A stretch of 64,000 nucleotides of DNA, taken from sequence record OR525698.1, one strand, 5' to 3'. A model generated the notes under the pieces. It made no database searches, was not told where the DNA came from, and saw nothing but the letters and a program-made list of their open reading frames with translations. Shown here one piece after another: positions 47,943 through 62,064 of the stretch; positions within the stretch are counted from its first letter, which is position 1; the number at the start of each line of letters is the position of its first letter. A program made the translations under genes and the position numbers. Source of the stretch: Escherichia phage vB-Eco-KMB43.

Positions 47943-48763
47943 TTAGTCACCTCACCGAAAATTGTAAATTGTCTACGATTCTCATCGCCGAAAGATTCTA
48001 CTACGTCGTTTACCTTGACGCAAGTCCCGCGCGGTAAAATTACTTCACATTCGCAAGGATTCCATGCAATTGACCCAACAACAAAACCTTTATGATCTTT
48101 TACGTCAATTACCCACGATACATTACAAGAATGTTGCATCTTTCCGGTCATCGATTCATATCGATTCTCACAATAAAGGCTAGTGCTGTTTGATAGCCAT
48201 CCTCCAAAGATGATCGGTGTCATGCTGGTCGATACAAAGTTTTTAAAGGTAAACTCCTTATCTTCAATGATGCGCTCTATTGTCTGAATGTCAAGATGTT
48301 GACCGCGATAAAGAGTACCGTTTAACTTTTCGGTTTTATCCATGACACAATCCATCAAATCGACAATCTCTGATATCTCGTCGGTCATGTCTTCTTCCCC
48401 TAAGAGAGCACCATTTACCCATTCGTATTGTTCAGATACATAATCACAGATTGCATTATATTCTGCTGGGGTTATGTTGTTATGTTTGTAATGTTTGAAT
48501 ACATTATCTCCAAAGTCTTCGGAATGTACTTCATACATCACATTAATGATTTTCTTGACAAATCCATAATCTTGTGTCTCGCGCTCAAGGAAGCGGATAA
48601 CCTTCACATAATCATCAAAGTTAATCTGATCGCTGATCATCTCAGTGATCATGTAACCATTAATCCCCTCAATGTCATATGTTTCAATATAATTGTCCAT
48701 ACGTTCCATCATTGATTCGCGTGATTCTTCCGAAAGACGAAAATCCTGTAATTTCTTGAACAT
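47939..48763 (-). CDS. ADP-ribosyltransferase, Alt-like paralogue (short)
   Basis: 274 aa; R-S-ExE motifs TLYRGQHL, FVSTSMTP, CECEVILPRG shared with the Alt ORF. Confidence 0.55.
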   Translation of the reverse strand: MFKKLQDFRLSEESRESMMERMDNYIETYDIEGINGYMITEMISDQINFDDYVKVIRFLERETQDYGFVKKIINVMYEVHSEDFGDNVFKHYKHNNITPAEYNAICDYVSEQYEWVNGALLGEEDMTDEISEIVDLMDCVMDKTEKLNGTLYRGQHLDIQTIERIIEDKEFTFKNFVSTSMTPIIFGGWLSNSTSLYCENRYESMTGKMQHSCNVSWVIDVKDHKGFVVGSIAWNPCECEVILPRGTCVKVNDVVESFGDENRRQFTIFGEVTK

Positions 48764-48842: not shown

Positions 48843-50894
48843 TTACATTTTAAATTTATCTGGCATTGCGTCTACAGATACCAGATCAGCGATAAGCTGA
48901 CGTAGAGTTGCCTTATCTGCTTTCTTACGTTCGGTTTTAGCTTCGCTAATGAAGCTGGAGAAAGACAGGTCAGAAGCAGGTTTAATAACACCTTCACGGA
49001 TGAATGCATCACCGTCTGCGATCATCTCGCCAGATTCTTGTAATGCTGCCAGTTCATTTTTGTTCATAATATGTGCCTCAATGTAATAAGTTTCTTGTGA
49101 ATCCGTCGATGCCGTAGCACGAGTTACCGTATCAAAGGATAACACAACACCGCGAGGAAGTAAAATCTCGCATTCTTTGTAAGCAAATGCTTTGTTACCT
49201 ACTGGCAACACAGGGATGTTTTCCGCGCCAGCAATGGAGAAAGCAACATTAGCGCCACCTTCACCGCGAGAGCCAGCCATAGAATCAACACCAGCAACGG
49301 CACTAGCCACGTTTGCATTCCAGCCGCCAAAAATGTTAGGTGCAAGGGAAGTGCTCACATAGTTTTTAAAGTAAAACGCTTTTTGCTTACGTGCAGTTTC
49401 CCACATTTGAGTCCGGAAGTCCATACCACGATACAGAATAGTACCCGGATCAAGTTTAACGCCATAGTTGGAGAAGGCATTATCCAGTGCATCGCACATC
49501 TTGACCAATTCTTCTGGATCTGCGATGCCTTCAAACTCTTCCAGCTTACGATCAGTTAGGAAGTTGTTCATATTGATGTATGCTGCATCGGCATATTCGC
49601 TCAATACAAAACCTTCCGCGCCCGGCAGATCAAGATCAATATCTGCCATCATTTCACCCATGTTGCTAGCAATTGCTTCAAACATACCGGAAGCAACATT
49701 ACGTAGGGCATCGGTTTTAATCTGGGTGATATGACTACGCAGCATTTCAGCTTTTACATCTGCTGGCATAGACTGGTCTACTCGATCCATTGCCAGGGCG
49801 GTGATCTTGTTTTCGAATACTTCCTCGCTCATGATTTCTTTTAAGCGTTTGATTGATGCTGCGATAACTTCCGCAGACAACGGATCATATTGATCCTGAA
49901 CTTTTACCAGTTCGCTTACTGCGTATTTTGCATCTGCTTCGCTTTCAAAAATAGTACGCATGAAACCATAGCGAGTGATAATATCACTTGTCCAGTCATT
50001 CAGAGAACGGGCGGTTGAACGTTCTAATGCTTGACGATCAATCAGAGTATTAAACTGTTTCTTAGGTTCGGCTTCGGTGATATCTTCTTCCGGTTTAAGA
50101 TTAATTTTTTCTGGATGATTCACATAGTCGCTGTTATAGGTCGCTTGAGTTTTCAGCATTTCTTCTTTAGTCAAACGAGATTTAGCCGCTACGCGTTGTT
50201 CTGCTTCCGCGTTTCGTTCTTCTTCTGACACAAGACTAGCCGCATACGCCTCATCTTTAGTCAGAGATTCACCAGTAGCCTTAGATACCCAGCGATCACC
50301 TAAATCACTTTCTACTTTAGTGAACAAGGATTCATCAAGTTTAATCCCTTTAATCTTATCAATCGCCATCCCGCGACGCTTGACAACAACTAAAGCGATC
50401 TTTTTGCTGGTCATTACTTCCTGCTGGAATACTTCAAACTTCGGTGTACGACGCACCAAACGCTCTATAACGCGCTTAACCAGTTCGGTCTTACCTTTCA
50501 TGCGGGATACGTTAAAACGGAACATAACAGCGTCTAATTGCGCTTTACGGGCTGTTTCCATAACCACATCAAAAGCACTTGCCATAACTGCAATCGGGTT
50601 ATCTCCTAGACCATTTTTAAGCTGTACAATACGACCGCTTTTGTTCATTTCGCACAGTACAACATGTGCGGTCTTGTCACCCATACGAATGATTTTAGGT
50701 GTTTTGTTGGTGAAGTTACAAAGACGGACAATCACATCTTTATCGCGTGTCTGTACTGCAAAAAGCTGTTTAGGATTCTGCTTAGGCTTTAAGCACTGTA
50801 CCGGAGCAATACTGCCAAAGTTTTCTTCCTCTTCCGTCAACAGCCATTTCTCGAAAGATTCAATCATTAGATCGTCGATTTCTAAGTTAAACAT
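48843..50894 (-). CDS. alt: Alt ADP-ribosyltransferase
   Basis: 683 aa (T4 Alt 682 aa); ART motifs ILYRGMDF, YVSTSLAP, KECEILLPRG near C-terminus. Confidence 0.7.
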   Translation of the reverse strand: MFNLEIDDLMIESFEKWLLTEEEENFGSIAPVQCLKPKQNPKQLFAVQTRDKDVIVRLCNFTNKTPKIIRMGDKTAHVVLCEMNKSGRIVQLKNGLGDNPIAVMASAFDVVMETARKAQLDAVMFRFNVSRMKGKTELVKRVIERLVRRTPKFEVFQQEVMTSKKIALVVVKRRGMAIDKIKGIKLDESLFTKVESDLGDRWVSKATGESLTKDEAYAASLVSEEERNAEAEQRVAAKSRLTKEEMLKTQATYNSDYVNHPEKINLKPEEDITEAEPKKQFNTLIDRQALERSTARSLNDWTSDIITRYGFMRTIFESEADAKYAVSELVKVQDQYDPLSAEVIAASIKRLKEIMSEEVFENKITALAMDRVDQSMPADVKAEMLRSHITQIKTDALRNVASGMFEAIASNMGEMMADIDLDLPGAEGFVLSEYADAAYINMNNFLTDRKLEEFEGIADPEELVKMCDALDNAFSNYGVKLDPGTILYRGMDFRTQMWETARKQKAFYFKNYVSTSLAPNIFGGWNANVASAVAGVDSMAGSRGEGGANVAFSIAGAENIPVLPVGNKAFAYKECEILLPRGVVLSFDTVTRATASTDSQETYYIEAHIMNKNELAALQESGEMIADGDAFIREGVIKPASDLSFSSFISEAKTERKKADKATLRQLIADLVSVDAMPDKFKM

Positions 50895-50940
50895 TTTATA
50901 TCCTCTAGTTGATAACCTATAAACCTATATTTATGAAAAA

Positions 50941-50955
50941 GGGGCTTAACGCCCC
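50941..50955 (-). terminator. hairpin terminator (minus strand)
   Basis: GGGGCTTAACGCCCC palindrome with T-run on the minus strand. Confidence 0.5.
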
Positions 50956-50961
50956 CATTTA

Positions 50962-51174
50962 TTATAATGCACCATCGAGCAATTGCTCTAAGGTGTATCC
51001 TGAATAGTCTTTTTCAATCAGGATATATTTTCCTACTCGTTTAATACAACCGCGCATTTCAACGTATTCTGCGTAGTTGATGGTGCGAGTTGTTCCATCT
51101 TCCAGTAATGCAGTACCGATTTCGTTAATGCGGTCATAAGTTACGTCGGTAATGATGATTTCGATGTTAGCCAT
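50962..51174 (-). CDS. hypothetical small protein (70 aa)
   Basis: ORF preceded by cassette copy 1 with AAGGAG SD. Confidence 0.45.
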   Translation of the reverse strand: MANIEIIITDVTYDRINEIGTALLEDGTTRTINYAEYVEMRGCIKRVGKYILIEKDYSGYTLEQLLDGAL

Positions 51175-51245
51175 TTGATACTCCTTAGTAGTTCGTTTCG
51201 GTATGGGTGTATTATGATATACACCCTCTGTTATGTCAACAACTT
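51175..51245 (-). promoter_or_regulatory. promoter/5'UTR cassette copy 1 (PeSL-like)
   Basis: minus-strand TTGACA (plus 51234-51239), 17-bp spacer, CATAAT, conserved UTR ...ACACCCATACCGAAACGA..AAGGAG. Confidence 0.6.
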
Positions 51246-51425
51246 TTAGAACATTTTTGAAATCAATTCTGCTTTGATTTCGCAGAGAACATCTAAAGAT
51301 TTCTCGTCACCTGCTTTTGCTGCTTCTGCTTGCATTTTTGAAATGGCTTCAATGTCGGTGCAATTATAAGCCGCTTGAACTTTAGCGATTGCGATGATTG
51401 CCGATTCGATGGTTAAGTGTTTCAT
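51246..51425 (-). CDS. hypothetical small protein (59 aa)
   Basis: ATG 51425 directly downstream of cassette copy 2; not in ORF track. Confidence 0.4.
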   Translation of the reverse strand: MKHLTIESAIIAIAKVQAAYNCTDIEAISKMQAEAAKAGDEKSLDVLCEIKAELISKMF

Positions 51426-51495
51426 GTTTGATTCCCCTTTCGTTTCGGTATGTGTGTATTATAGGGGATCACCGATCCCCCTGTCAACAACTTTT
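51426..51495 (-). promoter_or_regulatory. promoter/5'UTR cassette copy 2 (PeSL-like)
   Basis: TTGACA (plus 51482-51487), palindromic spacer GGGGGATCGGTGATCCCC, TATAAT, conserved UTR. Confidence 0.65.
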
Positions 51496-51498
51496 TAG

Positions 51499-52014
51499 TT
51501 ATTTTTTTAATTGCTCATCTTGCAATAGGGCAATCACATGCTGGCGATGTTCTTCCGATTGAGGCACACCGAAAAAGTTTGTTTTGTAGAAATACTCTAA
51601 TCGGTCTTCTCGTGTGCTCTCTTCCATCATGATCGCGGGTAGTCCGAGATTTCGGAAACGTCGCTTTTCTGCTGGCGTAAAATCACTGTAATACAACATA
51701 GAATCATCATTACCAGCAATGCTAAACTCATCCTTCATAAAGGAGAATATTGCGTTTAAACGCTGTTTACCGTCCACGATTTCGATCTCATAGCGAGAGC
51801 CATCATCAATCTTAGCCATTGCGATAGCACCGACCGGAAAATCATTAATCAGGTTTTCGATAAACATACGTTTGTTTTCGGTGTCCCATACCAAAGGACG
51901 CTGATAATCTGGGTTCATGTTGATATAGCCATCTTCTAACCATGCTTCGTAAACAGAGATGACAAAGTTTTTAGTATTGGTATAGTAACGGCGTTTAGGC
52001 GTTAAACGGTTCAT
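51499..52014 (-). CDS. DUF262 / ParB-like nuclease-domain protein
   Basis: motifs DYQRPLVW and VDGKQR; ATG 52014 with AGGAGA SD, 1 nt after the upstream stop; ORF-track alternative start 52050. Confidence 0.55.
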   Translation of the reverse strand: MNRLTPKRRYYTNTKNFVISVYEAWLEDGYINMNPDYQRPLVWDTENKRMFIENLINDFPVGAIAMAKIDDGSRYEIEIVDGKQRLNAIFSFMKDEFSIAGNDDSMLYYSDFTPAEKRRFRNLGLPAIMMEESTREDRLEYFYKTNFFGVPQSEEHRQHVIALLQDEQLKK

Positions 52015-52015
52015 G

Positions 52016-52348
52016 TTATAGTCTCCTGAATGGATCATCACGTAAATCAATATCTTTTAAGAACTCATCCCATGAATGGCGGATATTGTTCTTAATTCTC
52101 CAGATAAGCGCAGGGATTGAACGCTCTCCCATCTGGAAGTATGGATCATATGATCCGTATGCCCAATATGCTACTACAATTCCACAATCAGCGCAATAGT
52201 ATTCTATTTCACTTGCTGGCGACCAAAGTCCATCAATATGATCGGTGATCTTGCTTTCGATGTTATGGCTATGACAATCAGGGCAACGGATGCAATGACC
52301 TTGTTTATCGTAATTTGACGTTAGCGAATACTTAAACAATCTCATCAT
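52016..52348 (-). CDS. zinc-ribbon protein (two CxxC pairs)
   Basis: 110 aa; CIRCPDC ... CADCG; start overlaps upstream stop (ATGA). Confidence 0.45.
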   Translation of the reverse strand: MMRLFKYSLTSNYDKQGHCIRCPDCHSHNIESKITDHIDGLWSPASEIEYYCADCGIVVAYWAYGSYDPYFQMGERSIPALIWRIKNNIRHSWDEFLKDIDLRDDPFRRL

Positions 52349-53061
52349 AGATCCTTATTTGCTTCAAATACTGCCTTTGCGAATCCTCGCGGGGTAAGTG
52401 ACCTGATAGTCTTTGTTTTCGTTCCTTTCCCGCCTAGCTTAGAATGCTGTTTACTGTACCCTTTATTAATCTGCAAAGGTTTCTTTTCTGGCATTATAAA
52501 GCCTTGTCCGGTCCATAAGCAAGTCTTTTTCGGGTACATATCACGGGCGGCGATATACTCAGGAAAAGTAGGATGTTTATCATCTTCCGGCAAATAACCG
52601 CCATATTCCCACGGATGGAACATATAATCAGGCTTACGCCACATGCTAGAGATAACGCTTACAGGATTCTCTATCATGTAGGGAACTCCTAGCCATTCAC
52701 CCAAATAAGCGGTTATTTTAGCTGCCCGTACATCATGAACTTGAATCAATGGTCCTTGCTCTCGTTTCTTTCGTTCAAAGTGTGCAGCGCCACTAACAGC
52801 TAAATTGGTGCACGGTGGGAATGCAAAGATAATATCCGGTTTCCCCCATTCAAGGTCCATTGCTCTTTCCAGCCAGTTCAAATCAATCCAGGTGTTTACA
52901 TAGGTAATGTTTGGATGTTCAAATCTGGTATTATACTTTTTGTATGTACCGTGGTCGGCGTCATCCGCATTAAAGCAGACTACCTTATGACCTGCTTTAG
53001 CCCATTCTAGCCCCATTATCCCCGATCCGTCAAAGTTACAGAATATTAATTTTTGTTTCAT
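52345..53061 (-). CDS. C5-cytosine methyltransferase-fold protein (atypical PCT motif)
   Basis: 238 aa; motif I-like FCNFDGSGIMG, motif IV-like DIIFAFPPCTNLAVSGA, motif VI-like MIENP; no obvious target-recognition domain. Confidence 0.5.
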   Translation of the reverse strand: MKQKLIFCNFDGSGIMGLEWAKAGHKVVCFNADDADHGTYKKYNTRFEHPNITYVNTWIDLNWLERAMDLEWGKPDIIFAFPPCTNLAVSGAAHFERKKREQGPLIQVHDVRAAKITAYLGEWLGVPYMIENPVSVISSMWRKPDYMFHPWEYGGYLPEDDKHPTFPEYIAARDMYPKKTCLWTGQGFIMPEKKPLQINKGYSKQHSKLGGKGTKTKTIRSLTPRGFAKAVFEANKDL

Positions 53062-53303
53062 ATACGCCCCTTTAATCCAACACAGATTTTAGAAGGTTCT
53101 TTGCCGTGCCACATTAAGTAAAGTCCATTAATGCGGCCTTGTTTTGTATATGATTCTTTTCTGATCTTCTTATAGTGTCGTGCTTCCTCAGCCGATTGTT
53201 TAGAATACCAATCATAAAGGAAGAGGCACAAAGGCCAACCATTAGCGGCCTTAATGCAGTTATTAAGAAATTCCTTATTGCGTTTAATTAATTTTCTTTT
53301 CAC
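53058..53303 (-). CDS. hypothetical basic protein (81 aa)
   Basis: ORF with overlapping start/stop in the operon. Confidence 0.4.
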   Translation of the reverse strand: MKRKLIKRNKEFLNNCIKAANGWPLCLFLYDWYSKQSAEEARHYKKIRKESYTKQGRINGLYLMWHGKEPSKICVGLKGRI

Positions 53304-53551
53304 GCTGCCCCCATTGGTTTGATAGTAACAGAATCTAAAAGACCTTTGTTAGCCAGTTCGCGGCAAGTTTTCAGATCCGCAACTTCCCAGCCAGCCGCAA
53401 TCAGGTTATCGATGAGGCTGTTAGCAACTTCTTCGCTCATGAAAGAGCACTGTTTGCCGATGGTGTAGCGTACACGCTGTAATTTCAGTTTACGGAAGCC
53501 TTTAACGTTCAGGTCTTTAGCGATTTTCTTTGCGGTTTCGATGTTAGCCAT
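53300..53551 (-). CDS. hypothetical protein (83 aa), first gene of the operon
   Basis: ATG directly downstream of cassette copy 3 (AGGAGAATCAAACAATG). Confidence 0.45.
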   Translation of the reverse strand: MANIETAKKIAKDLNVKGFRKLKLQRVRYTIGKQCSFMSEEVANSLIDNLIAAGWEVADLKTCRELANKGLLDSVTIKPMGAA

Positions 53552-53628
53552 TGTTTGATTCTCCTAAGTGGTATCTAGTCTTGATGGTTGTATTGTAGGG
53601 GAGTTATCCTCCCCTGTCAACACTTTTT
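53552..53628 (-). promoter_or_regulatory. promoter/5'UTR cassette copy 3 (PeSL-like)
   Basis: TTGACA (plus 53615-53620), palindromic spacer GGGGAGGATAACTCCCC, TACAAT, conserved UTR. Confidence 0.6.
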
Positions 53629-53634
53629 ATAAAA

Positions 53635-53802
53635 TTATTTGTTAATTTCCGGTGCGTTGCTAGGATAGTAACCTTCTTTAACTCCGAGGTATTTCGCAAC
53701 CATCCCTACAATCTTCTGTGCTACTACAATGTCAAATTTCAGATAATCTTCGCCGTGGGTTTCAATGATATATGCTTCACATGCTGCTTTAGTCTCGAAC
53801 AT
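53635..53802 (-). CDS. hypothetical small protein (55 aa), paralogue of 57256-57423
   Basis: ATG after cassette copy 4; about 87% amino-acid identity to the second copy. Confidence 0.5.
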   Translation of the reverse strand: MFETKAACEAYIIETHGEDYLKFDIVVAQKIVGMVAKYLGVKEGYYPSNAPEINK

Positions 53803-53873
53803 TTTGATTCTCCTATTTCGTTTCGGTATGTGTGTATTATAGGGGATCTCCCGATCCCCGTCAACAACTTTTT
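53803..53873 (-). promoter_or_regulatory. promoter/5'UTR cassette copy 4 (PeSL-like)
   Basis: TTGACG (plus 53860-53865), palindromic spacer GGGATCGGGAGATCCCC, TATAAT. Confidence 0.6.
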
Positions 53874-53880
53874 TTTAAAA

Positions 53881-54162
53881 TTATTCGTGATTAGTTTCGA
53901 TGTTGTGCATTTTGCACCAGTTCAGCCAATCACCCAGATCCTGATAGTTAATGCTTTTATCTGCTGCCATCGTTTTTGTCTTGATACCCATATGTGCGTT
54001 ATGAGTAAGCATTTTTACAGTGAACTCAATTTTATCACCTTTAGCTTTAACATCAACCAGTTTGGTCCACTGGCTACCAGCGCCGCGAATGTTCATACCA
54101 ACGATGTTTCCGATGTATGCTTCTTTGTTTTTCAGGATTTCGGTTGCTTTGATGAATTTCAT
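53881..54162 (-). CDS. hypothetical protein (93 aa)
   Basis: ORF downstream of cassette copy 5. Confidence 0.45.
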   Translation of the reverse strand: MKFIKATEILKNKEAYIGNIVGMNIRGAGSQWTKLVDVKAKGDKIEFTVKMLTHNAHMGIKTKTMAADKSINYQDLGDWLNWCKMHNIETNHE

Positions 54163-54232
54163 TTTTGATTCTCCAGTTCGTTTCGGTATGTGTGTATTAT
54201 GCTATTTTCTTACTTTGGTGTCAACAACTTTT
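54163..54232 (-). promoter_or_regulatory. promoter/5'UTR cassette copy 5 (PeSL-like)
   Basis: TTGACA (plus 54219-54224), CATAAT, conserved UTR. Confidence 0.55.
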
Positions 54233-54233
54233 T

Positions 54234-54503
54234 TTAGATATTTTCAGAAATAAATTTTAAAACTTGACGTAAATGTTTCTCATCTTTGATAGTCGCCGGA
54301 AGTTCTTCTTTTACTTCCTGTGCAAGATAGATATTTCCGTTCCAAGTGAAAGATCCGTCTTCGTTTACGCGATAGCTGAACATCCACTCGCAATCATTTT
54401 CGATTTCATATACACACAGAAGAGTGTAATCTTCAAAGCTATTGATTTCAAGGTCGAAGCCGTGACGTTTTGCAAAGTTGGTAGTGGTTTTAGTCAGTGC
54501 CAT
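54234..54503 (-). CDS. hypothetical protein (89 aa)
   Basis: ORF downstream of cassette copy 6. Confidence 0.45.
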   Translation of the reverse strand: MALTKTTTNFAKRHGFDLEINSFEDYTLLCVYEIENDCEWMFSYRVNEDGSFTWNGNIYLAQEVKEELPATIKDEKHLRQVLKFISENI

Positions 54504-54580
54504 TGTTTGATTCTCCTAAGTGGTATCTCGTCTTGATGGGTGTATTATGCTATAGGCGTGATCTGGTGTCAATGCTTTTT
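54504..54580 (-). promoter_or_regulatory. promoter/5'UTR cassette copy 6 (PeSL-like)
   Basis: TTGACA (plus 54567-54572), 17-bp spacer, CATAAT. Confidence 0.55.
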
Positions 54581-54820
54581 TTAATTTTATGCAATAAAAA
54601 GACGACACTAAGGTCGGCACATTTTAAAAATTCTTGCCATATATGCAAGCCTCATAATCTAGAGGATGACCGCCAATCCTACCCGGCTTAATATTCCAAC
54701 CGCATCGATATTTGCTGACCATGCTAACAGTTTCGGTTCTTAGAGCATTTTCTTTGCAAATCATACCCCATAAATTCTTTTCTATAAGGACAGTCCGCTT
54801 TGCAAGTTGGCGGTTCTACG

Positions 54821-55012
54821 TCATTTAGCGGGTCGGAAGCAGTTGGCTTTATTATCAATTCTTTGTTTGCAATAATCATAAGCACATCCCATTGAAGACA
54901 ATTTAACATCTTCGCAATAAGTGTTGAATCCGTCAAACACGGTCACTTCGTATTTGACTCCATCAGCGATAGCTTTTACTTTATACCATCCATGCTTGTA
55001 TAAAATCTTCAT
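54821..55012 (-). CDS. hypothetical Cys-rich protein (63 aa)
   Basis: ATG directly downstream of cassette copy 7; overlapped out of frame by ORF 54724-54936. Confidence 0.4.
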   Translation of the reverse strand: MKILYKHGWYKVKAIADGVKYEVTVFDGFNTYCEDVKLSSMGCAYDYCKQRIDNKANCFRPAK

Positions 55013-55082
55013 CTTTATTTCCTCAATCTCGTTTCGATGGGTGTATTATGCTATAGGCTAGACCAGGTTGTCAACAACTTTT
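55013..55082 (-). promoter_or_regulatory. promoter/5'UTR cassette copy 7 (PeSL-like)
   Basis: TTGACA (plus 55069-55074), CATAAT, conserved UTR. Confidence 0.55.
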
Positions 55083-55103
55083 TTAATTTTTTGGAAATAA
55101 AAA

Positions 55104-55124
55104 AGCCGACGCTAAGGTCGGCTA
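55104..55124 (-). terminator. rho-independent terminator (minus strand)
   Basis: AGCCGACGCTAAGGTCGGCT hairpin with TTTTTT on the minus strand; degenerate copy at 54597-54620. Confidence 0.6.
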
Positions 55125-55130
55125 ATAAAA

Positions 55131-55439
55131 TCATTTAGACAAATAATCATTCTGTGCAATCCGGTCGGCGTATGCTGGTGTTACGTCAATCGCCAACACT
55201 TTAACGCGTGCTTTCTTGCGACCTGGGTTTTCTCGTAACCAGTGCTCATGACCGTGCACATTTTTATATTTTGATGCGGTTTCGAAGGTACGGATCGGAC
55301 CTGGATAATCTGCGTAAAGGATCTCTAGGTCTTCGGTGATGTAAAAATATACATCATAATTACTGTTCTCTAGTTTAAGCAGAGAATTGCGAAATTGTGG
55401 TAAATTCTCGCGGGTAAATTCAACTACAAGATTTTTCAT
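55131..55439 (-). CDS. small protein, paralogue family A (HxHW ... AxDV.P..AD), member 1
   Basis: ATG 55439 with GAGGA SD; HEHW and VLAIDVTPAYAD motifs. Confidence 0.5.
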   Translation of the reverse strand: MKNLVVEFTRENLPQFRNSLLKLENSNYDVYFYITEDLEILYADYPGPIRTFETASKYKNVHGHEHWLRENPGRKKARVKVLAIDVTPAYADRIAQNDYLSK

Positions 55440-55468
55440 AGTGATATCCTCATTCAGATAGATTAAAA

Positions 55469-55483
55469 GGGGCTTAACGCCCC
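55469..55483 (-). terminator. hairpin terminator (minus strand)
   Basis: GGGGCTTAACGCCCC palindrome, identical to 50941-50955. Confidence 0.5.
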
Positions 55484-55488
55484 GTATA

Positions 55489-55776
55489 TTAAAACAGTCC
55501 TTCCTGTACACCGTAGTAGAGTTCGTCACTGATAATTTCATTAATGCGACGGTGTGCATATTCCTGATTTGCGAAGTTGTCAGCAAGTTCTACTTTAGTT
55601 TCGCCGTCATGAGTCCATTTAGTGATAACTTTACCATCTGCAAATTTGAAGTTGAACTCTTTAGCTACTGCATCGCGTACCAGACGTGCGAACTTGTTGT
55701 TACGGATTGCATTATCGGTTTCGTGTGCAGCGTGAGCAAATTTGTTAACTTTCAGAGTGATAGTAATGTATGCCAT
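55489..55776 (-). CDS. small protein, paralogue family B, member 1
   Basis: 95 aa; LVRDAVAKEFNFK shared with 58658-58969 (LIREVRKALAKEFNTK). Confidence 0.5.
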   Translation of the reverse strand: MAYITITLKVNKFAHAAHETDNAIRNNKFARLVRDAVAKEFNFKFADGKVITKWTHDGETKVELADNFANQEYAHRRINEIISDELYYGVQEGLF

Positions 55777-55859
55777 AATTTGATTCTCCTAGTTAGAAAG
55801 TGTATCTCGTTTCGATGGGTGTATTATGCTATACACCCGATCCATTGTCAACGCCTTTT
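55777..55859 (-). promoter_or_regulatory. promoter/5'UTR cassette copy 8 (PeSL-like)
   Basis: TTGACA (plus 55846-55851) overlapping the stop codon of the upstream ORF; CATAAT. Confidence 0.55.
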
Positions 55860-56183
55860 TATAAAATAATTTTCGATATCTTTATGATGTTTTTCTCGTG
55901 CTTGGTCTGCCTCGGCTGGCGATACGTTGGAAGCGATAATCTTCACTACTGTTGCACCTTTTTCGGTGTCCGACACCCAATGATTATGGAAACCGCTATT
56001 ATTAAACACTTGATAAGAAAATGATTTAATGCTAGGGAAATTATATGTGTAATAGCGTACCTTTAATTCTGAATCTATGTATAGATAGATCACCGCACCT
56101 AGATAGACCGTCTCACTCGTTCCATCAACTAACAGTAGAGTATTTCGCAATTCTTCTAAATTGTCTTTTGTAAGAAAAATCAT
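55848..56183 (-). CDS. small protein, paralogue family A, member 2
   Basis: 111 aa; LYIDSELKVRYY, HNHW, IIASNVSPAEAD. Confidence 0.5.
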   Translation of the reverse strand: MIFLTKDNLEELRNTLLLVDGTSETVYLGAVIYLYIDSELKVRYYTYNFPSIKSFSYQVFNNSGFHNHWVSDTEKGATVVKIIASNVSPAEADQAREKHHKDIENYFIKRR

Positions 56184-56197
56184 AGTATAATCCTCAA

Positions 56198-56533
56198 TTA
56201 AACCAAATTAACTTTGGTGTTGTGGTGTTTTTCTCGTGCTTCGTCCGCTTCTTCCGGTGTCACGTTACGAGCGACTACAATAACACTTGCTGCCTCTCCG
56301 TGATGAGAGATCTCTACCCAATGGTTATGATTTGTGAATCCGTGTTTTATTGCGTAAGCGAACGGCTTGGACGTCCAGTAGTTACTATAATATCGTACAT
56401 TTAGATCGCTATCAATGTACAAATATGTGCTGTCGTTTACATTGCCACTAACAACAAAAACAAGACAATTGCGAAGATCTGGCAATATTTTGTCTGTCAA
56501 TTTTATAATGTGACTGTTCATAATTAACACCAC
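56198..56533 (-). CDS. small protein, paralogue family A, member 3
   Basis: 111 aa; LYIDSDLNVRYY, HNHW, VVARNVTPEEAD. Confidence 0.5.
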   Translation of the reverse strand: MVLIMNSHIIKLTDKILPDLRNCLVFVVSGNVNDSTYLYIDSDLNVRYYSNYWTSKPFAYAIKHGFTNHNHWVEISHHGEAASVIVVARNVTPEEADEAREKHHNTKVNLV

Positions 56534-56733
56534 TCAAGAGTTTTTGAAAACACATCTATCCATTGTTGAGTATATGCAGTTTCTTTCCACGAGACAATAC
56601 CAGTAGAATAATGATTCTTGTTTCCAGAAAAGGACGGGCATTTTGATGCATCTTCCATCATCTTTTCGGCGAACTCTGGTTCGTATACTCGCAAGATCTG
56701 TTGATATGCTTTGTAGTCTTTAAATTTGCTCAT
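56524..56733 (-). CDS. hypothetical small protein (69 aa)
   Basis: ORF between family A members. Confidence 0.4.
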   Translation of the reverse strand: MSKFKDYKAYQQILRVYEPEFAEKMMEDASKCPSFSGNKNHYSTGIVSWKETAYTQQWIDVFSKTLEWC

Positions 56734-56998
56734 AATCGTTAACTACCTTATCAGCTTCTTTTATTGTTTTTACATCAACTGCGATAACCCGTAAAGGTTC
56801 GTCGTGGTTCCACCAATGATCGTGAATATCAGCTTGTGATTTATCACCAAAGGAATCACGAATATCATTTTTACATTTATAGCTAATGTGACCGTCATAG
56901 TCAACATAAAGGTAATTATCGAAAATCGGCGTTTTTAAGATCATGCCGAAAAATCTTTCTTTGTGTGTCTTATCCAGTGTTGCAGTAATTCGCATCAT
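56720..56998 (-). CDS. small protein, paralogue family A, member 4
   Basis: 92 aa; HDHW, VIAVDVKTIKEAD; AGAGGAA SD. Confidence 0.5.
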   Translation of the reverse strand: MMRITATLDKTHKERFFGMILKTPIFDNYLYVDYDGHISYKCKNDIRDSFGDKSQADIHDHWWNHDEPLRVIAVDVKTIKEADKVVNDYEQI

Positions 56999-57010
56999 AA
57001 TATATTCCTC

Positions 57011-57190
57011 TTAGAAAGGGATGGTCATTTCTTGAGCTTGTACATTCTCGTTAGGATTAAACTTCATCCAACCGATATTGTCTACCAGCATATGCACATT
57101 TTTATCATATCCTACGTGAGTAGTCAATACTAAATGTGCTTTACCTTCAACGATGATTTCCATGTACTTCTGAACTTCGATAGCTTTCAT
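57011..57190 (-). CDS. hypothetical small protein (59 aa)
   Basis: ATG directly downstream of cassette copy 9; not in ORF track. Confidence 0.4.
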   Translation of the reverse strand: MKAIEVQKYMEIIVEGKAHLVLTTHVGYDKNVHMLVDNIGWMKFNPNENVQAQEMTIPF

Positions 57191-57191
57191 T

Positions 57192-57255
57192 TTTGATTCT
57201 CCGTTTGTTGTCTTGATGGGAGTATATTACTACTCCCTTTAATCATTGTCAACTA
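57192..57255 (-). promoter_or_regulatory. promoter/5'UTR cassette copy 9 (PeSL-like)
   Basis: TTGACA (plus 57247-57252), 17-bp spacer, TAATAT; palindrome GGGAGTA..TACTCCC. Confidence 0.5.
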
Positions 57256-57423
57256 TTATTTGTTAATTTCCGGTGCGTTGCTCGGATAGTAACCTTCTTT
57301 AACACCCAGATATTTTGCGACCATTCCGGTGATCTTCTGTGCTACTACAATGTCAAATTTCAGGTAGTCTTCACCGTGGTTTGCTACAATGTATGCTTCG
57401 CATTCTGCTTTAGTCTGGAACAT
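57256..57423 (-). CDS. hypothetical small protein (55 aa), paralogue of 53635-53802
   Basis: near-identical nucleotide and protein sequence to the first copy; ATG after cassette copy 10. Confidence 0.5.
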   Translation of the reverse strand: MFQTKAECEAYIVANHGEDYLKFDIVVAQKITGMVAKYLGVKEGYYPSNAPEINK

Positions 57424-57493
57424 TTTTGATTCTCCTATATCTCGTTGGTATGTGTGTAGTATAGGGGATCACCGATCCCCTGTCAACAACTTT
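57424..57493 (-). promoter_or_regulatory. promoter/5'UTR cassette copy 10 (PeSL-like)
   Basis: TTGACA (plus 57481-57486), palindromic spacer GGGGATCGGTGATCCCC, TATACT. Confidence 0.6.
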
Positions 57494-57802
57494 TTATTCT
57501 TCATCTTCATCTTTATCTTGATATGCGTACGTCATAAATTTGTCTGCTACTTTGTCCGCGTTTTCAGGTTCTACGTCTGACGCTAGGACAACAGCTAGTT
57601 CTGTTTTGTCGTTTCCATCATACCAATGATTATGAGTGTCGTTTTCTTCGATATAAAACGAATCATTTGGAGTTGTGCGACAATATACGTCTAAATTCCC
57701 ATCGATATAAAAGATCCAATCCGAATACAAAATGATTGTTTTAGCAAGATTTTTATTGCCTTCAACGAAAGGTTCGGCTACAAACAAATTAGTATGTTCC
57801 AT
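57494..57802 (-). CDS. small protein, paralogue family A, member 5
   Basis: ATG 57802 with GAGGA SD; HNHW, LAVVLASDVEPENAD. Confidence 0.5.
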   Translation of the reverse strand: MEHTNLFVAEPFVEGNKNLAKTIILYSDWIFYIDGNLDVYCRTTPNDSFYIEENDTHNHWYDGNDKTELAVVLASDVEPENADKVADKFMTYAYQDKDEDEE

Positions 57803-57819
57803 AGTATTTTTCCTCAAAA

Positions 57820-58011
57820 TTATACAGCTTCGTAAACTTCCCAATGTCCAACACCAGCACGCTTAACGAAAAGGTTTTCTTTTATGTTATTCATAAACGT
57901 CTGGATGGATTTAATTCGTTTGGAAGGTTTCCAGTCTTCGTTGGTATTGCGTCGATACATCATAACATTACCAGACCGCTTATATTCAGCAACCATTTTA
58001 AGACCACACAT
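57820..58011 (-). CDS. hypothetical small protein (63 aa)
   Basis: ATG 58011 with GAGGA SD downstream of cassette copy 11. Confidence 0.4.
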   Translation of the reverse strand: MCGLKMVAEYKRSGNVMMYRRNTNEDWKPSKRIKSIQTFMNNIKENLFVKRAGVGHWEVYEAV

Positions 58012-58090
58012 AATATTATCCTCAATTTGTGGGAGAGTATTACCCTCCCGATTATTGTTATACTACATTACGCAAAATGGCGTGTCAATG
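58012..58090 (-). promoter_or_regulatory. promoter cassette copy 11 (divergent variant)
   Basis: TTGACA (plus 58083-58088, inside the 3' end of the upstream ORF), TAGTAT; palindrome GGGAG..CTCCC. Confidence 0.4.
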
Positions 58091-58388
58091 CTTCTTTTGC
58101 TGTTCCGCTAAGATTCTCTATCTCTCCTGGCATAACATCAACCGCCAGAACTTCTACAACATCCTCTGATCCTAACCAGTGAGTATGACCTTTGTAGAAC
58201 TTGATAATCAGACTACCTTCCTCATCCCATTTAACGCTATCGCTAGCCCACCACACATCACCGTCGATAAAGTTGATGTAAAGCACACTACGCCACATTG
58301 AATTAATTACTTTCAATACTGCGCCTTTCATATCTTCCACGGTGTGGTCTTCCATTTTGAAGACCTCGCCTACCTGAACTTTTGCCAT
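58068..58388 (-). CDS. small protein, paralogue family A, member 6
   Basis: 106 aa; HTHW, VLAVDVMPGEIEN. Confidence 0.5.
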   Translation of the reverse strand: MAKVQVGEVFKMEDHTVEDMKGAVLKVINSMWRSVLYINFIDGDVWWASDSVKWDEEGSLIIKFYKGHTHWLGSEDVVEVLAVDVMPGEIENLSGTAKEALTRHFA

Positions 58389-58405
58389 TTAGTCACCTCT
58401 CTTTA

Positions 58406-58585
58406 TTACATAACAATTACGCCAGCCGTTGAAAGTTGATGTTTCAACTGAGCATTTTCTGCTACTGTCAAATCAATGATTTCTTGTGACGCTGCAATCA
58501 TATAGCCATTGGTGATATTGTTTTGCATCAGTTCAATGGTTTCTTCGTTGTAGCGGATTTTAGCGATGATTTCGTTGAAGTTCAT
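58406..58585 (-). CDS. hypothetical small protein (59 aa)
   Basis: ATG 58585 directly downstream of cassette copy 12; not in ORF track. Confidence 0.4.
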   Translation of the reverse strand: MNFNEIIAKIRYNEETIELMQNNITNGYMIAASQEIIDLTVAENAQLKHQLSTAGVIVM

Positions 58586-58657
58586 AATTGATTCTCCTAG
58601 TTCGTTTCGGTATGTGTGTATTATAGGGGAGTTTAACCTCCCCTGTCAACAACTTTT
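58586..58657 (-). promoter_or_regulatory. promoter/5'UTR cassette copy 12 (PeSL-like)
   Basis: TTGACA (plus 58645-58650), palindromic spacer GGGGAGGTTAAACTCCCC, TATAAT. Confidence 0.6.
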
Positions 58658-58969
58658 TTAAAGTTTTTCCATGATAACGGTCATAATTACATCTTCTGCG
58701 CGAGCGGTCAGATTATCAGCGTCAGCATGTGGGCGGTTGGTTGTTACAGAGATAACACCGTTGCGCACTGGTTTGATATTGATATCAAGATGATCCGCGA
58801 AACGTTCGCCAGTTACAGAATGAATTTTGGTGTTAAATTCTTTTGCCAGTGCCTTGCGAACTTCACGAATCAGGATAGCGTTTTTCAGTTGGTTCTCCGC
58901 GCTCATGGTCTTCTGAGTGTTCATGGTTCCGTCGAAGTCAATCATTGGCAGCGTTACGATGTATTTCAT
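58658..58969 (-). CDS. small protein, paralogue family B, member 2
   Basis: 103 aa; LIREVRKALAKEFNTK. Confidence 0.5.
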   Translation of the reverse strand: MKYIVTLPMIDFDGTMNTQKTMSAENQLKNAILIREVRKALAKEFNTKIHSVTGERFADHLDINIKPVRNGVISVTTNRPHADADNLTARAEDVIMTVIMEKL

Positions 58970-59056
58970 TTTTGATTCTCCGTTTAAGAAAGTGTGTTTC
59001 GTTTTGATGTGTGTAGTATAGGGGATACGTGATCCCCTGTCAACAACTTTTTTGAA
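58970..59056 (-). promoter_or_regulatory. promoter/5'UTR cassette copy 13 (PeSL-like)
   Basis: TTGACA (plus 59038-59043), palindromic spacer GGGGATCACGTATCCCC, TATACT. Confidence 0.6.
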
Positions 59057-59401
59057 TTATTTTTTCATGAGCTTAATGGCTTCTTCCATAGCCAGCACAT
59101 TTCGATAGTTAGGGTATCGTGTTAGATCGTCATACATTCGCTTAAGGGTGGAAACTTCCTCAAACTCTGGGTTTTCTAGATACAGTTGAACAAATTGTTT
59201 CTCTACCATCTCGGCTTTTAGCTTGTCTGCTTGTTCCTGTTCATATGATTTCGTTGGACCCAACACCAACAAAATGATAAAGGTGATCAACGGGCTAATG
59301 ATCAATGATAGGATAACATAACCAATAACGCTACGGTTTAAACGGCTTGCGTACATGCCTACAAGGAAAACAAAAAGGATATAGATAAACAGAAAGAACA
59401 T
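59057..59401 (-). CDS. small inner-membrane protein (two predicted TM helices)
   Basis: 114 aa; N-terminal hydrophobic segments MFFLFIYILFVFLVGMYA and VIGYVILSLIISPLITFIILLVLG. Confidence 0.5.
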   Translation of the reverse strand: MFFLFIYILFVFLVGMYASRLNRSVIGYVILSLIISPLITFIILLVLGPTKSYEQEQADKLKAEMVEKQFVQLYLENPEFEEVSTLKRMYDDLTRYPNYRNVLAMEEAIKLMKK

Positions 59402-59408
59402 ATAATGG

Positions 59409-59882
59409 TTACTCCTTATTTTCGCGCTCGTACTTTTCGAAATAAAATTCTACTGGCTGGTCGTGGATTGACAGCAAGCCAAAGCGTTTAGCCGCTCGCA
59501 ATCCCATATTGCGCTGAATGTACTTCTGGAAGTTCTCGCGTATACACTTACGCCAGGATTCTAAGCCCATGCAGCTTTTATAAAGATTGCATTGCACACA
59601 TGCCGGATTCATGTTATCAAGTATATCATGCTCCGGTTTATGCATTCCTACAACCTTATACTTCCACGATCCATCATCATTACGGACAATTCGTCCATTT
59701 TCATCATAGACTACCTTTGAGCGTCGCAATACTGGTTTGATGTGGTCTGCGTGCCAGCGATCCCCTAGTTCCTCGCCACAATAGGCACAACGTCCACCAT
59801 ATTTCATTTTCAGGATCTGGCGTTGCTCTTTCTTTGACAATTTTTTAGGTTTAGGGGCTTTCGCCCCTTCATTATCACACAT
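59409..59882 (-). CDS. HNH endonuclease (candidate homing endonuclease)
   Basis: 157 aa; CAYCGEEL...HADHIKPV...NMNPACVQCN (CxxC-H-N-H-CxxC arrangement); start overlaps ligase stop region. Confidence 0.6.
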   Translation of the reverse strand: MCDNEGAKAPKPKKLSKKEQRQILKMKYGGRCAYCGEELGDRWHADHIKPVLRRSKVVYDENGRIVRNDDGSWKYKVVGMHKPEHDILDNMNPACVQCNLYKSCMGLESWRKCIRENFQKYIQRNMGLRAAKRFGLLSIHDQPVEFYFEKYERENKE

Positions 59883-61377
59883 CGAATACCTCTTTTACTG
59901 TATTTGCAGTGGTCTTGTCGTAGCGAATACGTTTGATGATTGGGAGAAATAAAGAGAACTCCGGTTCATCTTCTTTACGTGATTTGCTGCGAATGTACCC
60001 GTTGCATGTCATCTCAATGACTTTTCCAATCAGGTTATGACGGTCAGCCCATAACATTTCTCGGTCGAGTTCATTTCGACGATCGAACGGAATTACACGT
60101 TCAGTACCATCATCACCTTTTTCGGTTGTAGTGTCGGTTAATCCCGATCCGGTGTTAGTCATCATTCGTCCGCACGCACTACGGACAGTAAAACCGCCTA
60201 CCTTATTGGGGTCTTTACTATGCGGATATACATCAACAATTTCCGCGTCGAAGTCAATCACTTCTTTAAATTTAACCTGATCTTTACTACGGCGATCTTC
60301 AAATACACCATGTAAATTTTTAAGGATAATACCTTCTAAGCCCATGTTGACATAACGATGATATACTTCGCGAGCTTCATCGATATTGTTAACTACAGTG
60401 TTTTCTATGATCTGAACACGAGGATCGTTAAGTTCTTCAACAATCTGTTTTAGTTCTTCGAATCGATCTTTATATTGCTTCGTTGCTTTCTCGTTTCCGT
60501 AATACACATCACGGTCGATAACATCCCAGACAGTGTAAACAATACATTGGGCTTCTTCTTTTGGAATAGTTCCTTTAAGTGATTTGTTGAGGATACCATT
60601 TCCGGTCTGACGATCTGCAACAACGGATTCTTTCACTGCTTCCGCTACTGGCGTTAATGGCATTTCCTCTTCTTCAAATATCCATGACAGAGTACCATCA
60701 TAAACGCTTTCAACGAAGTTCTGCGCTGGTGTTTGCGAAAGGGTAGGCATATATACCAATTCGCCATCTAGAACAATTCCACGGCCTCGTAGACGCTCTA
60801 AAACCGCAAACAAATCATCAAGCCCTTGATAGGTATTACCTGAGCGGGTATAGATTGCTAATGTTTCCCCGTCAATATCAGCCATACCACGAGCGCCATC
60901 GCTTTTAAGTTGTGCATACGCCGGATACTTGATATTAGCAATAGTCTTATCAGAACATGACGATGCAAGGTGGCACGGTTGCTGGGGGATCAGTTTCTTC
61001 CATACCTTGTTTGCAGTGGTAGCGGAACAGCCGCATTCCAGATCACGATTCAGGACCATCATTGCAACTTTAGCATCATCCTCTGACAAGCAAGTCAGAG
61101 TATCGGTAACTAGCTGTAATGCTGCATTACCAGTTACTTGACGCGTGGCAAGTTTATTTTTAAAGACCTGTAATGCACCGGATAAAGACAATACAGACGA
61201 ATAGCGAGACGGTTTATCGTATTTCTTTACGCCAAACGTAACCTGTTTGCAATATGCCAGATAAAAGCATTCTTTCAGCGTTTCATTGCTCGCGGATTCT
61301 TTCAGAATCTTTTCTTTCAGCGATGTTTTGTCTGTTGCTGCAAGCTGATTAATGATATTAAGAATTGACATTTTCAC
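59875..61377 (-). CDS. gp30: ATP-dependent DNA ligase (gene 30)
   Basis: 500 aa; adenylation motif AQLKSDGARG (KxDGxR); size matches T4 ligase (487 aa). Confidence 0.85.
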   Translation of the reverse strand: MKMSILNIINQLAATDKTSLKEKILKESASNETLKECFYLAYCKQVTFGVKKYDKPSRYSSVLSLSGALQVFKNKLATRQVTGNAALQLVTDTLTCLSEDDAKVAMMVLNRDLECGCSATTANKVWKKLIPQQPCHLASSCSDKTIANIKYPAYAQLKSDGARGMADIDGETLAIYTRSGNTYQGLDDLFAVLERLRGRGIVLDGELVYMPTLSQTPAQNFVESVYDGTLSWIFEEEEMPLTPVAEAVKESVVADRQTGNGILNKSLKGTIPKEEAQCIVYTVWDVIDRDVYYGNEKATKQYKDRFEELKQIVEELNDPRVQIIENTVVNNIDEAREVYHRYVNMGLEGIILKNLHGVFEDRRSKDQVKFKEVIDFDAEIVDVYPHSKDPNKVGGFTVRSACGRMMTNTGSGLTDTTTEKGDDGTERVIPFDRRNELDREMLWADRHNLIGKVIEMTCNGYIRSKSRKEDEPEFSLFLPIIKRIRYDKTTANTVKEVFDV

Positions 61378-61837
61378 CTCGTTTTGTTAAACGTTCACGA
61401 ATATCATTGAGGATACTACAAAATTCCGATTCAGTCAATATAGTCTTTAACGGATCAGTTCCACCTATGCTATGACGTAATTTCTTATTTCCGGTAGCAA
61501 GTAATGCTTTACAAAATTCTGGGTTATTCCGTGCCATCGTAACAAATGCCAGATGTACCAGTCTGTAATAATGCTCACTCATTCGATGAATCGGGCGACC
61601 CTGAAAATATAACATGTGATTCTCAATCTTTTCAGTTCTTCCGGTTCTTTTTGCTTTGCCACCGTGCATCAAAAAGATTTCTCTTTGTCTCTGAGGGTTC
61701 TTAAATCTTAGCCCCTGTAAAAATCCTTCTGTGCTGTTAATATCGCAGCCAAATAAACGGAATGGTCTTTTATTGAAATTACTCAATTCACCCGATGGAT
61801 AAGGTCCACCCGCATAGATATCAATTTCAGAAGTCAT
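61358..61837 (-). CDS. NADAR / YbiA-like domain protein
   Basis: 159 aa; GELSNF...STEGFLQGLRF and ALLATGNKKL paralleling E. coli YbiA as recalled (GDFSNF...TSEHYFQAQKF, ALLATAPAKL). Confidence 0.6.
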   Translation of the reverse strand: MTSEIDIYAGGPYPSGELSNFNKRPFRLFGCDINSTEGFLQGLRFKNPQRQREIFLMHGGKAKRTGRTEKIENHMLYFQGRPIHRMSEHYYRLVHLAFVTMARNNPEFCKALLATGNKKLRHSIGGTDPLKTILTESEFCSILNDIRERLTKRGENVNS

Positions 61838-61991
61838 TGAAACTAATCTCGCTAATCAGAGAGAACGGATCATAATCGTCATTAGGAATATCGATAGTAA
61901 TCGAATGAGGATTTACCCATACACCAAACTGGTCTTCTTCGGTGAATACTTCGGTATGGATTTCGTGGATGTTTACATTCATAGTTTTCAT
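61827..61991 (-). CDS. hypothetical small protein (about 54 aa)
   Basis: ATG 61991 with AAGGA SD; overlaps the start of the NADAR ORF; not in ORF track. Confidence 0.3.
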   Translation of the reverse strand: MKTMNVNIHEIHTEVFTEEDQFGVWVNPHSITIDIPNDDYDPFSLISEISFNDF

Positions 61992-62045
61992 AATAAAATT
62001 TCCTTAATAATCAATAACTTACAAAATCATATAGCCAAAATATAG

Positions 62046-62064
62046 GCGGGATTATTTCCCGCCG
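62046..62064 (-). terminator. hairpin terminator after gene 31 (minus strand)
   Basis: GGCGGGATTATTTCCCGCC palindrome with T-rich tract on the minus strand. Confidence 0.5.

Follow-up and report, generated by a model that had tools for sequence, protein, structure and literature searches.

A predicted AdfN orthologue of the NADAR superfamily encoded next to the DNA ligase gene of a Krischvirus coliphage

Analysis of a 64,000-nucleotide stretch of Escherichia phage vB-Eco-KMB43 (sequence record OR525698.1; the whole stretch is referred to as the window) indicated that an open reading frame (ORF) of 159 amino acids adjoining the DNA ligase gene is, as judged from its sequence, the Krischvirus (RB49-type) orthologue of T4 gene 30.3, which codes for AdfN (anti-DarT factor NADAR). 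It is in our judgement probably a functional orthologue, an orphan NADAR confined to the core domain that would hydrolyse guanine-N2-ADP-ribose on phage DNA and so neutralise DarT1. Genes of this kind have been described before, and public databases have for years listed this very protein as gp30.3. The source phage is a Krischvirus, a T4-like coliphage of the RB49/JSE type; the 4-kb region around 30.3 shares 95-99% identity with 59 phage records, and the ORF protein is 100% identical to RB49 gp30.3.

61358..61837, minus strand: gene 30.3 / adfN orthologue, predicted DNA guanine-ADP-ribose glycohydrolase (159 amino acids, ATG start, single domain)

Family membership and fold of the 30.3 product

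An earlier note, made from the sequence alone, had described an ORF of this length and position that overlaps the ligase gene and carries three NADAR-signature motifs, and all of these points held. In the translated ORF, GELSNF occupies residues 16-21, STEGFLQGLRF residues 35-45 and ALLATGNKKL residues 111-120. The match of the protein to the Pfam profile Phage_30_3 (PF08010) spans 137 of the 138 profile positions and scores 132.5 bits (E=1.2e-38), where the cut-off is 36; phrog_652 matched the protein with E=2.5e-45. BLASTP comparison with T4 gp30.3 (from NC_000866) gave 38% identity over 151 amino acids (E=2e-30), and a tblastn search of the window with T4 AdfN returned the ORF as the only match. 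The PF08010 score, together with the strong purifying selection across natural alleles described below, places the observation far above chance.

Since the generic NADAR hidden Markov model (HMM) scored below threshold, the assignment to the superfamily relies on the family-specific profile, the fold and profile-profile alignment. The single-sequence AlphaFold model was discarded (predicted local distance difference test, pLDDT, 46.6) and the alignment-based model, with a pLDDT of 94.3 and a predicted template modelling score of 0.89, was used. The family alignment, A2, comprised 109 sequences pooled from two database searches. Foldseek comparison of the model with the PDB gave two significant matches, E. 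coli YbiA (2b3w, E=3.9e-6), which was the best, and the Phytophthora NADAR with bound ADP-ribose (8bau, E=5.9e-4). Alignment of the family profile with YbiA by hhalign (E=2.2e-5, probability 76%, 91 columns) placed E37, Q41 and R44 on the Glu, Gln and Lys of the YbiA E-x3-Q-x2-K motif, and ALLATGNKKL on LLLATAPAKL. As modelled, the 30.3 product has the NADAR (YbiA) fold together with its motifs. An hmmsearch of the PDB sequences with the family profile returned YbiA alone (E=0.12-0.25), phmmer of the ORF against the same sequences returned no NADAR, and a residue-level alignment to PnNADAR or the G. lovleyi NADAR, sought via P0008 and P0082, two members of the family that score higher for NADAR, gave only the YbiA N-terminus.

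Two other identities were rejected. The phmmer match to the C-terminal subdomain of DltA in the PDB (7vhv, E=3.8e-4), with an NCBIfam echo at E=0.24, was judged to be chance because the fold searches showed no likeness to adenylation enzymes. Weak Pfam matches to GidB, an rRNA methyltransferase, were found in 51 of the 109 family members, the best (E=2.5e-6) just over the model cut-off. This signal was an artefact of a 25-residue N-terminal stretch, DIGSGxGxP/DIGSGxGYP, that mimics S-adenosylmethionine-binding motif I (residues 9-33 of P0084, about 5-16 of the window protein); so short a motif could cause gp30.3-family proteins to be mis-annotated.

Active site, the Arg44 substitution and selection on the allele

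The positions compared with T4 AdfN and other NADARs, all in the 30.3 ORF, are the following.

61727..61729, minus strand: Glu37 codon GAA, equivalent to T4 AdfN E36, PnNADAR E43 and C7 NADAR E88 (ungapped BLASTP alignment with T4)
61706..61708, minus strand: Arg44 codon AGA, equivalent to T4 K43, PnNADAR K50 and C7 NADAR K95, the position of the Lys that coordinates the ADP-ribose phosphates
61649..61651, minus strand: Lys63 codon, family column 63
61472..61474, minus strand: His122 codon CAT in the last beta-strand, motif KL-R-H-S-I, equivalent to T4 H123
61382..61432, minus strand: C-terminal alpha-helix, residues 136-152, in the high-confidence model, aligned to the T4 C-terminus and intact

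The window protein and that of T4 were aligned with 131 database proteins of the family; of these 133 sequences, 132 have Glu at the position of Glu37, the same number have Gln41 and all 133 have His at position 122. A catalytic role has been reported for Glu at the position equivalent to Glu37 (PMC11543638, PMC11825919), which hhalign pairs with a YbiA Glu. The last-strand His marks the gp30.3-type phage NADARs, while the YbiA family has Glu and the DarG1 family Asp (PMC11125620, PMC11543638, PMC12945103). In T4, AdfN activity was lowered by E36A, by K43A and by a C-terminal truncation mimicking RB69, whose inactive, frameshifted allele has lost the C-terminal helix (PMC11825919). The catalytic residues of the window protein agree with those of T4 AdfN with one conservative exception, Lys to Arg.

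This exception lies in column 44, which holds Lys in 129 family members, Arg in three and Asn in one; a basic residue is therefore present, but it is Arg where Lys is the clade rule. Arg occurs in the window protein, in the 90% cluster to which it belongs and in P0002 (69% identity). The contig of P0002 has the gene order of the window and a ligase overlap that is also 14 nucleotides, which indicates that Arg44 typifies a broader Krischvirus-like lineage.

Column 63 is Lys in 131 of the 133 members, including the window protein, and Gln in T4 AdfN, and hhalign pairs it with a YbiA Arg. K115 of the C7 NADAR, which is dispensable for catalysis and required in vivo, is a candidate counterpart; if Lys63 corresponds to it, the T4 Gln might relate to the inactivity of T4 AdfN outside T-even infection.

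In each of the 59 Krischvirus genomes 30.3 is present over its full 480 bp, without gaps, frameshift or truncation and with 95-100% identity. Comparison of ten alleles, those of the window, RB49 and eight divergent genomes, revealed 38 variable codons, 29 of which showed synonymous changes alone. The pairwise ratio of nonsynonymous to synonymous substitution (dN/dS) against the window allele was 0.00-0.08, with dS reaching 0.25, and E37, R44 and H122 were unchanged across the ten alleles. At the sequence level this strong purifying selection bears the signature of a maintained enzyme, in contrast to the frameshifted RB69 allele. Orthology, the NADAR fold, active-site conservation, an intact C-terminal helix and strong purifying selection were thus established in this analysis.

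Gene neighbourhood, ADP-ribosyltransferases and other anti-DarT factors

The genes and elements around 30.3, and the two ADP-ribosyltransferases of the window, are listed below.

59875..61371, minus strand: gene 30, ATP-dependent DNA ligase (PF01068, E=2.8e-22; phrog_114, E=1.4e-141)
61827..61991, minus strand: ORF 31.-1, 54 amino acids, no assigned function (phrog_15277, E=3.7e-42), annotated in RB49 record AJ550428
62045..62063, minus strand: GC-rich hairpin followed by a T-run, terminator-like, between gene 31 and 31.-1 (7-bp stem with six GC pairs, consensus scan)
48843..50894, minus strand: alt, packaged ADP-ribosyltransferase, 683 amino acids (phrog_802, E=3e-179; PF03496, E=2.1e-9; RB49p184)
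47939..48763, minus strand: Alt-like short ADP-ribosyltransferase, 274 amino acids (phrog_15144, E=2.6e-198; PF03496, E=4.3e-16; RB49p183)

The gene order in the window, cd, 31.1, 31, 31.-1, 30.3 and 30, is of the T4 type and is the same in RB49, and 30.3 has the position between gene 31 and ligase gene 30 that is conserved in T4-like genomes. ORF 31.-1 is the first gene of a compact 31.-1/30.3/30 cluster, an arrangement repeated in the P0002 contig; its stop overlaps the 30.3 start by 11 nucleotides. The overlap between 30.3 and the ligase gene is 14 nucleotides with the ligase ATG at 61371, the start given in the RB49 annotation, and 20 nucleotides if the ligase begins at an upstream GTG; according to the same annotation the ligase ribosome-binding site falls inside the 3' end of 30.3. 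The hairpin at 62045..62063 (approximately GGCGGG-AAATA-ATCCCGCC with a T-rich tail after it) may part gene 31 from the cluster, either as a terminator or by stabilising RNA; it is a pattern match alone, and the regional count of such sites was not above shuffle expectation. Downstream of the gene-31 hairpin the scan gave no convincing sigma-70-type promoter, and its promoter and terminator counts did not exceed those in shuffled sequence.

In contrast to T4, the Krischvirus 30.3 directly abuts the ligase gene, and T4 30.1, 30.2, 30.4-30.9 and rIII have no counterpart at the locus. Homologues of T4 30.4 and of other T4 neighbours, sought as possible partners, were not found. Directly downstream of the ligase gene, and overlapping its stop, lies an HNH endonuclease gene (59409..59882, minus strand; PF01844, E=5.4e-6; RB49p212), which probably codes for a free-standing homing endonuclease; T4 has no counterpart at this site.

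As the earlier note had pointed out, Alt and an Alt-like paralogue lie near the NADAR ORF, at 10.5-13 kb from 30.3; RB49p183, the shorter, is annotated as 'similar to C-terminal part of T4 Alt'. Since T4 alt sits beside gene 30, this nearness is inherited synteny. Alt-family enzymes are protein-arginine ADP-ribosyltransferases, while the NADARs known to us act on nucleic-acid bases and we know of none that acts on proteins. We regard Alt and its paralogue as context, having found no evidence that the NADAR acts on protein-arginine ADP-ribosylation by Alt. The RB49 genome also contains modB (8917..9420), so that with Alt and Alt-like the phage has at least three protein ADP-ribosyltransferases.

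The interval from alt to gene 30 spans about 10 kb with about 28 small ORFs of no assigned function (50900..59400, minus strand; RB49 114.5-123.7 kb), whereas in T4 it holds alt.1 (63 amino acids) alone. It resembles a hyperplastic early-gene region and could hold more host-takeover or counter-defence genes. Within it, a 183-amino-acid protein (51499..52050, minus strand) has a GmrSD_N/DUF262 (ParB-like) domain (PF03235, E=5e-20) and matches the PADLOC models NsnA (E=1.3e-20) and PD-T4-2_A (E=5.5e-12). It covers the N-terminal half alone of these profiles of about 385-417 positions and therefore lacks the usual C-terminal nuclease part. It is adjoined by a Zn-ribbon ORF and a phrog_757 'DNA methyltransferase' (RB49p189), its neighbours lying at 52016..52348 and 52345..53061 (both minus strand). 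In a lytic phage with unmodified DNA this defence-type domain could be a decoy, an inhibitor or a weapon directed at other phages.

The known anti-DarT factors of T4 were sought by tblastn in the window and in the remainder of RB49. An AdfM (Tk.4) homologue was found outside the window, at 50040..50495 of RB49 NC_005066 (locus L016, 40..495), with 44% identity and E=9e-39, and no homologue of AdfA (gp61.2) was found in either part. The DNA cytosine of RB49 is unmodified (PMC4041780), and neither beta-gt nor gene 42 lies between RB49 uvsX and gene 43, which follows it almost directly. The absence of AdfA and the unmodified cytosine both set RB49-type phages apart from T4.

Predicted function, alternative explanations and significance

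T4 gp30.3 was classed bioinformatically as a phage NADAR and shown to hydrolyse DNA guanosine-ADP-ribose, and not thymidine-ADP-ribose, in vitro (Toxins 2024, PMC11125620). It was named AdfN by Johannesman et al. (preprint PMC11257639; Nat Commun 2025, PMC11825919), who found that it strips ADP-ribose from DarT1-modified DNA, that T4 and T2 require it to withstand DarTG1, that its supply in trans suffices for RB69 to do the same, and that it is inactive against DarTG2. In a transposon screen adfN was conditionally essential on DarTG1 hosts, and the Tk.4 macrodomain was the anti-DarTG2 factor AdfM. The T4 NADAR, which consists of the NADAR core only, also removes guanosine-ADP-ribose, but not cytidine-ADP-ribose, from RNA (PMC12945103). 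T4-GT7, which lacks DNA modifications, remains dependent on AdfN and protected by it (PMC11825919), so DNA modification is irrelevant to AdfN action. The idea in the preprint that AdfN prefers hydroxymethylcytosine DNA was dropped for this reason, being contradicted by the T4-GT7 result in the published paper. AdfB of phage ICP1 was also rejected as a precedent for a non-enzymatic NADAR, since it is not described as a NADAR.

By analogy with T4 AdfN and further NADARs, the Krischvirus enzyme would act on guanine-ADP-ribose in DNA and probably in RNA too, with the same chemistry and a role against DarTG1. The product of 30.3 would be made from the compact 31.-1/30.3/30 cluster as a free-standing NADAR core domain. 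Host DarT1 would ADP-ribosylate guanine N2 of the phage DNA and block replication; the enzyme would bind the ADP-ribose and hydrolyse the N-glycosidic bond, restoring unmodified guanine so that replication could resume. Glu37 and His122 would flank the distal ribose and Arg44 would assume the phosphate-coordinating role of T4 Lys43. Removal of guanine ADP-ribose as a counter to DarTG-type defence, which the earlier note had put forward, is published for T4 gp30.3/AdfN (PMC11825919, PMC11125620), and homology, fold and catalytic residues agree with it. Of the DarTG systems it is DarTG1, not DarTG2, that applies here: DarTG1 modifies guanine and has a NADAR-type antitoxin, while DarTG2 modifies thymidine, and T4 AdfN is inactive on thymidine-ADP-ribose and against DarTG2 (PMC11125620, PMC11825919).

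Comparison with known systems revealed that the 30.3 product is nearest to T4 AdfN, with which it shares the PF08010 family, a single-domain size (159 and 152 amino acids), the slot upstream of ligase gene 30, the Glu, Gln and His active-site positions and the C-terminal helix; models of both match the same three NADAR structures. It differs in having Arg44 for T4 Lys43 and Lys63 for a T4 Gln. Unlike the DarG1 proteins (C7 NADAR; G. lovleyi NADAR, PDB 8bat; PMC11543638), it has no DarT toxin gene beside it, its neighbours being 31.-1 and the DNA ligase gene, and the sole ADP-ribosyltransferases of the window are the distant Alt-type (PF03496) enzymes. The N-terminal extension of DarG1 is missing, leaving the core domain alone (159 against about 220-230 amino acids), and His122 replaces the catalytic last-strand Asp of DarG1. 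The role of 30.3 would be in counter-defence of the phage, that of DarG1 being the antitoxin of a host. AdfN-Bas32 (T5-like) and AdfN-Bas60 (Vequintavirinae) are likewise orphan phage NADARs that counter DarTG1 (PMC11825919), but they belong to other NADAR clades, were acquired independently and neutralise DarT1 in uninfected cells, while 30.3 clearly belongs to the gp30.3 clade.

Several results weigh against the reading of 30.3 as a functional AdfN. With the generic NADAR model PF08719 the score was 15.5 bits (E=0.021), where 35.1 is required, and the NCBIfam NADAR anti-phage model was also below threshold (E=0.023). PADLOC, whose DarG-type models were included, gave no match for the 30.3 protein and none for T4 AdfN. 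The active-site geometry is deduced from sequence alignments. Arg44 takes the place of a Lys whose exchange for Ala impairs T4 AdfN and whose exchange for Arg in the C7 NADAR (K95R) retains guanine-ADP-ribose hydrolysis in vitro and loses DarT1 rescue of cells (Schuller et al. 2023, PMC11543638). T4 AdfN is fully effective in T-even infection only, probably via another phage factor that Krischviruses may lack; it neither fully neutralises DarT1 in uninfected cells nor fully rescues T5 or Bas25. The phages assayed on DarTG1 were Bas35-47, T2, T4, T6 and RB69 (PMC11825919). No paper linking DarTG1 with a Krischvirus, nor any DarTG1 plating data for one, was found in the literature. The assayed phages are from other genera, which we take to be Tequatrovirus and Mosigvirus. 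The HMM search against NADAR, the check that the earlier note had proposed, came out below threshold; however, the validated T4 AdfN has no PF08719 match at E<=1, so that the generic model cannot discriminate for the gp30.3 clade, in which it gives weak matches in 75 of 109 members (best E=1.1e-6). The cells of the K95R rescue assay were uninfected, a setting in which even wild-type T4 AdfN is ineffective, so that the assay is a poor predictor of function in the phage context.

The Lys-to-Arg exchange bears on two of the alternatives. It could mark a target shift in an active NADAR hydrolase whose main natural substrate is something other than DarT1-modified DNA, with RNA guanosine-ADP-ribose, the products of pierisin/ScARP-like or YarT-like toxins, or a nucleic-acid side-modification by the phage enzymes Alt, Alt-like and ModB as candidates. 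Arg44 is confined to one lineage (3/133) yet stable under strong purifying selection, K95R uncouples hydrolysis in vitro from DarT1 rescue in DarG1, and the phage has at least three ADP-ribosyltransferases. NADARs of all families remove RNA guanosine-ADP-ribose (PMC12945103), and the authors of PMC11825919 suggest that such factors may detoxify other ADP-ribosylating defences. We nevertheless consider a shift of this kind quite unlikely, as every phage NADAR so far assayed, whether of the gp30.3 type or not, counters DarTG1 (PMC11825919), the exchange is conservative and retains the phosphate-binding charge, and the T4 phage NADAR hydrolyses neither thymidine- nor cytidine-ADP-ribose. The ADP-ribosyltransferases of the phage do little for it, given the protein-arginine target of the Alt family, the lack of a known protein-acting NADAR and the inherited synteny of alt and gene 30. 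The same exchange could instead have weakened the enzyme, which would fold and hydrolyse slowly with no protection in vivo, leaving RB49-type phages wholly or partly DarTG1-sensitive and the gene kept for another role. The K95R and K43A results fit such an allele, as do the absence of AdfA, the second anti-DarTG1 factor, from Krischviruses and the negative outcome of the search for DarTG1 plating data. We rate it lower again, since a dN/dS of 0.00-0.08, full-length copies in 59/59 genomes and an R44 kept at 69% identity indicate strong selection on the exact active site, the truly defective RB69 allele is frameshifted, unlike the Krischvirus copies, and the K95R data come from a different NADAR clade in a toxicity assay that wild-type T4 AdfN fails too.

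The fact that E. coli YbiA is both the top Foldseek match and the sole sequence-level match in the PDB would suit a housekeeping N-glycosidase acting on riboflavin-pathway intermediates with no role in defence. The protein departs from YbiA (2b3w) and the Phytophthora NADAR (8bau), both of PF08719 families, in its sub-threshold score and in having His in place of the family Glu; YbiA-type enzymes are tied to riboflavin metabolism, and cytidine-ADP-ribose is a substrate of the canonical NADAR and YbiA families but not of the T4 phage NADAR (PMC12945103). We regard a housekeeping role as very improbable. The functional AdfN orthologue thus remains the preferred explanation. There is a small chance that the Krischvirus AdfN has an altered substrate preference or partner dependence, given the fixed Lys-to-Arg exchange, the unmodified DNA and the lack of AdfA; it might, for example, be tuned to another guanine-directed ADP-ribosyltransferase defence or to RNA, or be independent of the T-even helper.

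Family, fold, reaction and anti-DarTG1 role have all been published for the T4 orthologue, and the finding mainly confirms that the NADAR had been correctly recognised from the sequence. Gene 30.3 is labelled 'hypothetical protein' in RefSeq/GenBank in essentially all 59 Krischvirus genomes, and the annotation could therefore become AdfN/NADAR. Since they have no AdfA, RB49-type phages appear to depend on AdfN alone against DarTG1, and against DarTG2 they carry AdfM (Tk.4), a set-up that makes them a clean genetic background. Should the RB49 allele be functional in its native phage and depend on a T4-type helper, the products of T4 30.1, 30.2 and 30.4 would be excluded as that helper by their absence. 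The lineage-specific Arg44 is a natural experiment at a residue of known importance in NADARs, and if a change of preference or partner proves true, a K/R swap between T4 and RB49 could probe the specificity of NADARs in vivo.

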